Part shown: positions 40,901 through 43,900 of the stretch, one piece after another
How positions within the stretch are numbered: position 1 is the stretch's first letter
Layout: every line of letters starts with the position of its first letter
DNA from: Podarcis liolepis
Taxonomy: Eukaryota
Assembly (NCBI GenBank): GCA_965112155.1
Contig: OZ218099.1
Reading direction: 5' to 3' (one strand)
Length of the DNA: 64,000 nucleotides
The notes under the pieces: model-generated
Database searches by the model: none
Seen by the model: only the letters and a program-made list of their open reading frames with translations
Told to the model about the DNA's origin: nothing
Program-made: the position numbers and the translations under genes

Positions 40901-43900
40901 GAGTGAAACCAGAGCAGCACATGGAAACACCGTTTACCTTCCCGTCAGAGTGGTACCTATTTATCTATTTGCACTGGCATGCAAAGGGCATGGTAATATT
41001 ATTTATTTTCCTCGTGGTTCCACCAATTGACCCTATCCTTCAAAGCAATAAGAGGAAATGGGAGGAAGGGGGCAGATGGTAAAACCATACAGTAGTGCCC
41101 CGCAAGACGAATGCCTCGCAAGACAAAAAACTCGCTAGACGAAAGGTTTTTTCGTCCGCGATTTGCCTTGCAAGACGAATTCCCCTATGGGCTTGCTTCG
41201 CAAGACGAAAGCCCATAGGGAAATCTCCGGGCAAGTCTCCGCCAGCAGCGGCAGAGCTGCCGCTGCTGGCAGAGAGATCCGCGAAGCCTGGGCGCGCTGC
41301 GCGCAGGCTTTGGCATGCCGGCAAGTCTCCGCCAGCAGCGGCAGAGCTGCCGCTGCTGGCAGAGAGATCCGCGAAGCCTGGGCGCGCTGCGCCCAGGCTT
41401 CGGGATGCCGGCAAGTCTCCGCCAGCAGCGGCAGAGCTGCCGCTGCTGGCAGAGAGATCCGCGAAGCCTGGGCGCGCTGCGCTCAGGCTTCGGGATGCCG
41501 GCAAGTCTCCGCCAGCAGCGGCAGAGCTGCCGCTGCTGGCAGAGAGATCCGCGAAGCCTGGGCGCGCTGCGCACAGGCTTCGGGATGCCGGCAAGTCTCC
41601 GCCAGCAGCGGCAGAGCTGCCGCTGCTGGCAGAGAGATCCGCGAAGCCTGGGCGCGCTGCGCTCAGGCTTCGGGATGCCGGCAAGTCTCCGCCAGCAGCG
41701 GCAGAGCTGCCGCTGCTGGCAGAGAGATCCGCGAAGCCTGGGCGCGCTGCGCGCAGGCTTCGGCATGCTGGCAAGTCTCCGCCAGCAGCGGCAGAGCTGC
41801 CGCTGCTGGCAGAGAGATCCGCGAAGCCTGGGCGCGCTGCGCTCAGGCTTCGGGATGCCGGCAAGTCTCCGCCAGCAGCGGCAGAGCTGCCGCTGCTGGC
41901 AGAGAGATCCGCGAAGCCTGGGCGCGCTGCGCACAGGCTTCGGGATGCCGGCAAGTCTCCGCCAGCAGCGGCAGAGCTGCCGCTGCTGGCAGAGAGATCC
42001 GCGAAGCCTGGGCGCGCTGCGCACAGGCTTCGGGATGCCGGCAAGTCTCCGCCAGCAGCGGCAGAGCTGCCGCTGCTGGCAGAGAGATCCGCGAAGCCTG
42101 GGCGCGCTGCGCACAGGCTTCGGGATGCCGGCAAGTCTCCGCCAGCAGCGGCAGAGCTGCCGCTGCTGGCAGAGAGATCCGCGAAGCCTGGGCGCGCTGC
42201 GCACAGGCTTCGGGATGCCGGCAAGTCTCCGCCAGCAGCGGCAGAGCTGCCGCTGCTGGCAGAGAGATCCGCTGGGAAGGAATCCCTTGGACCCCCGCCG
42301 GACTTCAAAAGAGCTTCGGGAAGTCCAGCGGGGGGCCAAGGGATTCCCTCCCAGCCGCCCGCCTTTAGAAGCGCTCGGGGGAACACCTGCCCCCGCCGCC
42401 CCACTTCGGAAAGCTGTTCCGAAGTGGGGCGGGGGGGGCAGGGACACCCGGCCCCGCCGCCCCACTTCGGAAAGCTGTTCCGAAGTGGGGCGGGGGGCGG
42501 GGACACCTGGCCCCGCCGCCCCACTTCGGAAAGCTGTTCCGAAGTGGGGCGGGGGGGGGCAGGGACACCCGGCCCCGCCGCCCCACTTCGGAAAGCTGTT
42601 CCGAAGTGGGGCGGGCAGGCGGGGACACCCGGCCCCGCCGCCCCACTTCGGAAAGCTGTTCCGAAGTGGGGCGGGCAGGCGGGGACACCCGCCCCCGCCG
42701 CCCCACTTCGGAAAGCTGTTCCGAAGTGGGGCGGGGGGCGGGGACACCCGGCCCCGCCGCCCCACTTCGGAAAGCTGTTCCGAAGTGGGGCGGGGGGGGG
42801 CAGGGACACCCGGCCCCGCCGCCCCACTTCGGAAAGCTGTTCCGAAGTGGGGCGGGGGGGGGCAGGGACACCCGGCCCCGCCGCCCCACTTCGGAAAGCT
42901 GTTCCGAAGTGGGGCGGGCAGGCGGGGACACCTGGCCCCGCCGCCCCACTTCGGAAAACTGTTCTGAAGTGGGGCGGGGGGGCGGGACACCTGCCCCATC
43001 CGCCCCACTTCGGGGGGGGCGGGAACACCTTCTGAAGGCGGGCAGGGGGCGAAAGTCTTTGTCCCCCCTGCCTGCCTTCCCAGGGGCTTTTAAATCGCCC
43101 CGGACAGCGGAGAAGTCCTCCGCTGTCCGGAGCGATTTTAAAATGCCGCTCGCCAGCATTTTAAGATAGCCCCGCACAGCGGAGAAGTCCTCCGCTGTCC
43201 CAGGGTTTTTTAAAATGCTGGGGGTGGGAAGAAAAGCCCTTGTCCCCCCCCCCCAGCCTTCAGAAGAGGTCCGGGGACAGACTGTCCCCGGACCTGGTCT
43301 GAAGGTGGTTTCCCTAGGAACGCATTAATTGATTTTCAATGCATTCCTATGGGAAACCGTGCATCGCAAGACGAAAAAACCGCAAGACGAAGAGAATTGC
43401 GGAACGAATTAATTTCGTCTTGCGAGGCACCACTGTACTGGAAATTTAAGAACTAATGTGCTTTTTATGTTTTAATATGTTTTAATTCTTGCCCTATTTT
43501 GCTGTGTCAACTGCTTTGAGAACTTTTTGCTGAACAAATATTCTAAGCAGACTGAATTAATAAATCCAATTCTGGCCCTGCCCTGGCTCATTGCTATATA
43601 CTCTTCTTTGTTTTCTTGGTTTTTAAAAAAATCAACATCCAGAGCCCAAATCTTCTGAATCCTTCTGCTGGATACATCCCCATGAATCAGAGCAGTCTCA
43701 GTGGAAATCGCCAGGTATTTGATTTTTCTCCAAATCTGTATGGGATTCAGAGCTAGTGTACAGAAGGAGGGGTGGCATGTCTGGTGAGAAGAGCATCAGA
43801 TACGGGGGGGGGGGGGCAGTGTAATTTGTGTGTTTGTATGGAGGCTGTTAACTTCGGTAGAGTAGAAGGGTTGAGTGCCAGAGCATGTGCTTTGCACAAT

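Follow-up and report, generated by a model that had tools for sequence, protein, structure and literature searches.

A Young Tigger-Type Element with Variable Hairpin Minisatellites in an ERBB3 Intron of Podarcis liolepis, and Its Likely Autonomous Partner

An intron of ERBB3 in Podarcis liolepis holds a 2,346-bp DNA element that contains two hairpin-forming minisatellites and belongs to a set of about 50 nearly identical non-autonomous copies in the genome. We take it to be a young non-autonomous Tigger element, the arrays of which, on balance, probably change in length through template-jumping gap repair after excision; ordinary minisatellite instability in place is a close rival to this account. 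The element was found in a stretch of 64,000 nucleotides (contig OZ218099.1 of assembly GCA_965112155.1), referred to here as the window, and positions are those of the window unless they are given as element positions or with a locus name.

The element in ERBB3 and its insertion site

The element occupies positions 41090–43435 and is bracketed by the two TA dinucleotides of its target-site duplication (41088–41089 and 43436–43437), the left of which corresponds to the single TA at the empty site of relatives. Its 22-bp terminal inverted repeats (41090–41111 and 43414–43435) match at 20 of 22 bases and are imperfect but intact, in agreement with the initial annotation, which had described intact inverted ends and a TA duplication. 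Read from left to right on the + strand, the element comprises a left end of the autonomous type (41090–41182), which follows an intact Tigger element at 18 of 18 informative sites and includes 16-bp subterminal repeats (41096–41143); a segment (41183–41229) that opens with the inferred crossover zone (element positions 94–114) and continues with older hairpin-MITE sequence, including a fold-back of the arm end; a 90-bp minisatellite with two hairpins per unit (41230–42272); a 106-bp spacer hairpin (42273–42378); a minisatellite of about 60 bp with a 16-bp stem (42379–43013); a right interior from the older hairpin-MITE lineage (43014–43311), with more hairpins and two ~71-bp copies at 43088–43218; and a 124-bp right end (43312–43435) that is 90% identical to the autonomous element. 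TRF gives 11.6 units of period 90 (98% matches) and 10.5 units of period ~60–62 (92% matches, the differences lying mostly in the lengths of G runs), close to the 11.6 and 10 units counted before; the spacer hairpin between the arrays was absent from that earlier listing. The window element has this spacer once, and 14 of 40 copies have two or three in tandem, with a period of ~160. A four-state variable site at position 74 of the 90-mer unit provides a readable code for each array.

Every unit had been described as self-complementary, and folding bears this out. As DNA, the 90-mer folds with a z-score of −5.9 into two stems, the first of 13 bp with a 4-nt loop; the 60-mer reaches −5.4 with its 16-bp stem, as had also been claimed, the spacer −7.8, and the right arm −11.4, and none of 200 shuffles of each folds as well. 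As RNA, the modules of the element have z-scores of −4.4 to −6.8 against shuffles. The ratio of observed to expected CpG is 0.87 and 0.73 in the arrays, compared with 0.42 for the window. The initial annotation had taken little-decayed CpG as a sign of recent or ongoing array expansion; the low decay stands, but because the arms show little decay as well, it reflects the youth of the whole element and not array expansion specifically. The arrays were considered as protein-coding and rejected, as their long open frames merely translate the repeats; with an interior that has no match to the autonomous partner, the window element has no coding capacity for transposase.

The host gene lies on the + strand. 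Its kinase exon matches human ERBB3 chains with E values of 4e-24 to 2e-23 and ordinary EGFR chains with 7e-14; the single best match (2e-30) is a 678-aa chain labelled EGFR. The ERBB3 matches confirm the host gene proposed earlier. The intron (40271–43642, GT–AG) is the third from last, which we take to be intron 25, between exons 25 (40121–40270) and 26 (43643–43714), on the numbering of the 28-exon human gene. Between the element and the neighbouring exons lie 820 bp upstream and 207 bp downstream, and the insertion has tripled the intron from about 1,024 to 3,372 bp. GC-rich interspersed repeats with internal direct repeats are also seen in neighbouring ERBB3 introns (37890–38490 and 45630–45990).

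The initial annotation had proposed a search for an empty TA site in related lizards, and such a site was found. In four public runs, from different organisms, the left flank and one TA stand directly before the right flank, with both flanks on one contig in two of the four; contigs from two further runs depart from the window sequence at the insertion point. Flanks in the two closest runs differ from those of the window at 1–3 bases per 110–195. These contigs show that an empty allele exists, not that the filled allele is absent, and the organisms may not include the species of the window. The ERBB3 copy is a very young insertion, and probably a near-neutral intronic passenger for which the location in ERBB3 would be incidental.

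Copies, autonomous partner and wider family

The left arm, used as a query against the genome, found 1,955 candidates; the best 40 were scored, 15 of them at 100% identity. We retrieved 39 further copies at unrelated sites, 38 of them flanked by TA; these and the empty site uphold the earlier description of a recently mobile DNA transposon with variable minisatellites. Classical MITEs are small and uniform in size, at a few hundred bp. Uniform small size is not seen in the window subfamily, in which the retrieved copies range from 713 to 3,476 bp, with one more of 6,269 bp that carries a 3.7-kb insert. The number of 90-mer units varies from 0 to 19 and that of 60-mer units from 0 to 28, whereas an interior of fixed length was the outcome that the initial annotation had set against its own claim. 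The exact array-junction pattern occurs 50 times genome-wide. Among the 14 copies of the subgroup to which the window element belongs, 58 of 58 pairs lack any substitution in 460–550 non-array bases (identity was a criterion of selection for the left 139 bp but not for the right 320–410 bp), and 57 of these 58 pairs have unequal unit numbers. Distant loci have related variant codes at the position-74 site, which shows that transposition takes the arrays along and that editing follows. The lengths of the two arrays are weakly correlated (rho 0.32, p 0.052, 37 copies).

Several of these copies show features of their own. L014 and L015, with L157 (G000:C15:44.51–44.67 Mb), and likewise L159 and L160 (C20:36.25–36.49 Mb), are neighbours with near-identical arrays within the pair, which suggests local hopping. 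The 3.7-kb insert, in L041 (element positions 486–4228), is A-tailed and LINE-like by its ends; as it lies inside a 90-mer hairpin loop of a very young copy, this retrotransposon insertion would be more recent still. At L152 and at G000:C5:32784673–32785512, units occur on both strands within one locus, possibly as inversions or strand-flipped hairpin loops.

A DDE_1 search gave 237 candidates, and among the 150 that were scored many have identical scores and open frames. All 20 copies that were retrieved encode a 566-aa transposase. Eighteen are complete by their end patterns, all 18 are TA-flanked, and they are 3.0–4.8 kb long, the range being due to a variable array of 146-bp units (1–12 per copy) before the ORF. 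The protein contains the Tigger set of domains (CENP-B_N, HTH_Tnp_Tc5 and DDE_1), with aspartates at 190, 307 and 344, assigned to the triad by motif and not by alignment; the 36 residues between the last two agree with the DD29–36D spacing on this motif-based assignment. The nearest database proteins are a Lacerta agilis 'tigger transposable element-derived protein 1-like' (88%) and Podarcis fragments (89%–95%), and the named matches are mostly 'tigger ... protein 1-like'; membership of the Tigger clade, as against pogoR or Passer, is putative. Identity between the partner and the window copy is 97.5% over the first 121 bp and 90.3% over the last 124 bp. Among 100 listed exact young 57-base left ends, 42 precede a DDE_1 match, 52 belong to MITEs and 6 are unassigned; 38 of the 42 are linked to frames of at least 575 codons with no stop among the matches listed. 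The partner is a young, intact, multi-copy element with about 38 open copies, and its transposase likely cuts and mobilises the MITE ends.

The 146-bp array of the partner does not fold (z-scores +0.3 and +0.5), and in six of six pairs of partner copies with 0–1 base difference in the 1.7-kb ORF the unit numbers differ by 2–7. An array that does not fold thus varies as much as the hairpin arrays, so that hairpins are not required for length volatility, contrary to the earlier notion of a palindrome-driven process. The intact copies (L081–L100) include pairs that are identical across the whole ORF, and one of them, L092 (G000:C2), lies about 0.46 Mb from the window element. By eye, the transposase leader has two GTAAG donor-like sites and pyrimidine-AG tracts, so that the 146-bp array may lie inside an intron of the transposase RNA.

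Up to position 93, the window subfamily follows the partner at all of the informative sites, and the sites from position 122 on, as well as site 115, follow the older hairpin MITE, which is 83%–88% like the window subfamily at its left end and up to 99% like it at its right end. On these comparisons the window subfamily is a chimera, with its first 93 bases swapped in from the autonomous partner, and such a left end is the trace expected from a template switch between family members. An origin of the interior by simple deletion from the partner was rejected, as the two have no interior similarity; true deletion derivatives of the partner exist apart (L101, L121 and L132).

The Tigger/pogo family has at least 12,066 left ends in the genome, counted as exact matches to a 30-base sequence. 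Among 44 complete elements sampled at the start of one contig, 39 are 253–428 bp and fit the classical small MITE size; four of the other five belong to the hairpin lineage, and the last is a longer element derived from the autonomous one by deletion. At least 803 copies make up the hairpin lineage, and modules of 60, 76–80, 90, 113–114, 160 and 166 bp have been amplified in its different branches. Every MITE array type found is built of a hairpin unit, and hairpins may favour the birth of arrays. The initial annotation had also suggested that such elements seed satellites. Exact hairpins total 457 for the 90-mer and 1,563 for the 60-mer genome-wide, with only short clusters among the first 100 matches listed for each; no free satellite was seen in these exact counts, a search blind to diverged or unassembled arrays, or among sampled 60-mer or junction loci, 20 of 20 of which lie inside complete elements. 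The small totals and the confinement of sampled arrays between inverted ends speak against satellite seeding.

The window holds further elements of interest. An older hairpin-MITE member with a 166-bp array of four units (L168, 1,309 bp in full) occupies positions 1–1008, and short MITEs of the same Tigger/pogo family lie at 8810–9156 (−) and 26620–26934 (+), the latter with a degenerate 8-bp repeat core. Termini of further TA-flanked elements are seen near 1360, 7256–7475, 11347, 21274, 31203, 40383 and 40542; with related but distinct ends and 16-bp subterminal repeats, they likely represent sister Tigger-type MITE families. Outside the window, two young left ends face each other 6 kb apart (G000:C13:52262700, +, and 52268806, −), a possible composite or double-left-end element.

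When and how the arrays change

The evidence on timing is indirect, in that copies at different loci are compared and not alleles of one locus. For the older 166-bp subfamily, 37 of 40 retrieved loci are complete, and one more was known from before; 16 have two or more units. Non-CpG differences between units amount to 2.55% within an array (40/1,566) versus 2.79% between loci, and CpG differences to 10.0% (38/378) versus 12.0%, in arrays that are short (1–4 units, with two or more at 16 of 37 loci) and more stable anyway; the arms of this subfamily differ by 2.0% (non-CpG) and 7.4% (CpG). In the 60-mer, single-unit variants stand at 0.45% versus 0.48% for private arm changes at 15 older loci, and at 0.23% versus 0.18% at 42 young loci, where the arm figure includes mutations inherited from unsampled donors. 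The lack of within-array homogeneity and the occurrence of single-unit variants at the arm rate suggest that arrays mostly cease turnover after insertion. Four CpG variants are common to the four units of L168, and three variants in L152 are present in 26–30 units and elsewhere in at most one; this spread could be in-place homogenisation. L014 and L015 lie 38 kb apart with different flanks and have identical unit numbers (13 and 21), which means that length can survive a hop unaltered; the three places at which they differ all fall within the 90-mer array.

In the gap-repair account that we favour, the transposase would cut the MITE ends and excision would leave a gap. Repair synthesis might then slip within the arrays and alter the number of units, the repair strand could fold back on itself and give rise to new hairpins, and a switch to another family member would yield end swaps and microhomology deletions; cut-and-paste transposition would spread the successful variants. 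Hairpins would be a product of repair and at most its promoter, not a requirement. This account is favoured over causation by hairpins because the partner carries an unrelated, non-hairpin repeat that is variable too, and it gains support from an intact partner with shared ends and from a partner-type left end on an older MITE body. It is also possible that the arrays of the same young Tigger MITE mutate in place, by germ-line slippage, gene conversion or unequal exchange as in any GC-rich minisatellite, and that transposition only disperses them. Ordinary minisatellite mutation rates are far above point-mutation rates and could suffice for the variation from copy to copy; the variants spread over several units of L168 and L152 fit this reading, as do the equal unit numbers of L014 and L015 after a hop, with all their differences in one array. 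It is, however, at odds with older arrays that have no excess of within-array similarity and with single-unit changes that accumulate at the arm rate, and it leaves the end swap and the repeated birth of new modules unexplained.

We consider it quite unlikely that the unit palindromes, as hairpins or cruciforms, cause the instability and make the element a satellite-seeding minisatellite generator, as the initial annotation had proposed. The partner's non-folding array is equally variable and no large free array was found, although all MITE array units seen fold strongly, a C at position 74 that perfects the palindrome occurs at 5 of 39 loci by full units and in several subgroups, and palindromes are proposed as hotspots in the accessible text on DTC84 (PMC3879986). 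Compensatory base changes were considered as proof of selection on the hairpins and set aside, because many of the paired differences are CpG transitions, which are expected on both arms. That the array lengths are assembly artefacts, or that the insertion is under selection for a role in the processing of ERBB3 RNA, is highly improbable. GC-rich hairpin arrays are hard to sequence, but no N is present in any of 39 copies, and variant codes and flanks are particular to each copy. A role in RNA processing would fit an insert that triples the intron and stops 207 bp short of the acceptor; an empty site in relatives with flanks this similar argues against a conserved function. Gap repair may also be given a wider role, which we regard as conceivable but doubtful: in an active vertebrate Tigger, repair triggered by the transposase would drive the birth and turnover of minisatellites, re-license MITEs and tune the transposase. 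Arrays would then be remodelled in MITEs and autonomous copies alike, old MITEs would be re-licensed when the current left end replaces their own, and transposase output would be tuned through the variable 146-bp leader array.

Related elements and significance

Xmix of Xenopus belongs to a different transposon group (TTAA/Kolobok). The original studies, known to us through reviews, are said to be those of Hikosaka and Kawahara in 2004 for Xmix/Xstir and of Scalvenzi and Pollet in 2014 for miDNA4. MITEs with variable internal arrays are already known, on the accessible accounts of miDNA4, Xmix/Xstir and DTC84. Reviews describe Xenopus miDNA4 as a Tc1/mariner-type MITE with a monomer or a variable array, for which microhomology-mediated change during replication or repair has been proposed (PMC12628747, PMC9659126). 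The lizard element is likewise a Tc1/mariner-type MITE with a variable internal array; unlike miDNA4, which in these reviews has one captured satellite motif, its lineage has at least six hairpin units, with two or three per element, and an identified intact partner with an array of its own. For Xmix/Xstir the same reviews report tandem repeats from the MITE interior and a stem-loop model (PMC12628747, PMC9659126). The lizard repeats also belong to a MITE interior, whereas Xstir, on that account, forms free tandem arrays as well, none of which was found in the lizard. Clam DTC84 and pearl-type MITEs are described as constant flanks round a variable array with ordered unit variants (PMC3879986). 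The lizard cassette resembles DTC84 in its ordered unit variants and in the palindrome in each unit; DTC84 differs, as far as the accessible text of that article goes, in having no more than a handful of units, all of a single type, an AA duplication and no known mobiliser (PMC3879986). Template-switching gap repair has been published as a model for how MITEs arise: for Ozma and its MITEs Gnome, Elf and Goblin, the article's accessible text proposes abortive gap repair, microhomology and template switching (PMC3814204). There, too, an autonomous element stands beside its MITEs, but those of Ozma are described as deletion derivatives, whereas the lizard interior shows no resemblance to the partner, with sharing or swapping confined to the ends.

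According to the accessible parts of two surveys, elements of the Tigger pogo family have a TA duplication, a single ORF and inverted ends of 8–33 bp, and are typically 2.8 kb long, with a range of 1.0–4.5 kb (Gao et al. 2020, PMC7386202; PMC9219625); young intact Tigger elements have been reported in reptiles (Diaby et al. 2022, PMC9219625). The lizard family agrees with this description in its TA duplication, 22-bp ends, single ORF with CENP-B_N, HTH_Tnp_Tc5 and DDE_1, and young intact copies, and departs from the typical Tigger in the 3.0–4.8 kb of its complete copies and in the 146-bp variable array before the ORF. We met no mention of tandem repeats in Tigger in the accessible text of PMC7386202 and PMC9219625, and none of Podarcis, Lacerta, Zootoca or Darevskia in the supplement text of the latter, where figures and coded names may hide entries. 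Other lizard Tc1/mariner elements have been described (PMC3014272, PMC10058329). No account of the lacertid family or its arrays was met in a literature search that covered subscription journals and supplements thinly.

The case stands out for combining several hairpin arrays from one lineage with a recent end swap and with an intact, multi-copy partner whose own array does not form hairpins. The birth and change of tandem repeats within DNA transposons are still debated, for the most part on the basis of old copies that have no known mobiliser, and the value of the present case lies in a likely mobiliser that is intact and can be tested. Arrays with a readable unit code come together here with near-identical arms, an intact multi-copy transposase, a non-hairpin array as a control and relatives in which the site is empty, so that transposition-linked, in-place and hairpin-driven change become separable with long reads and an assay in cells. 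An amniote cut-and-paste element that is young and intact deserves attention on its own account, and the loci, about 50 in number, could serve as highly variable markers.
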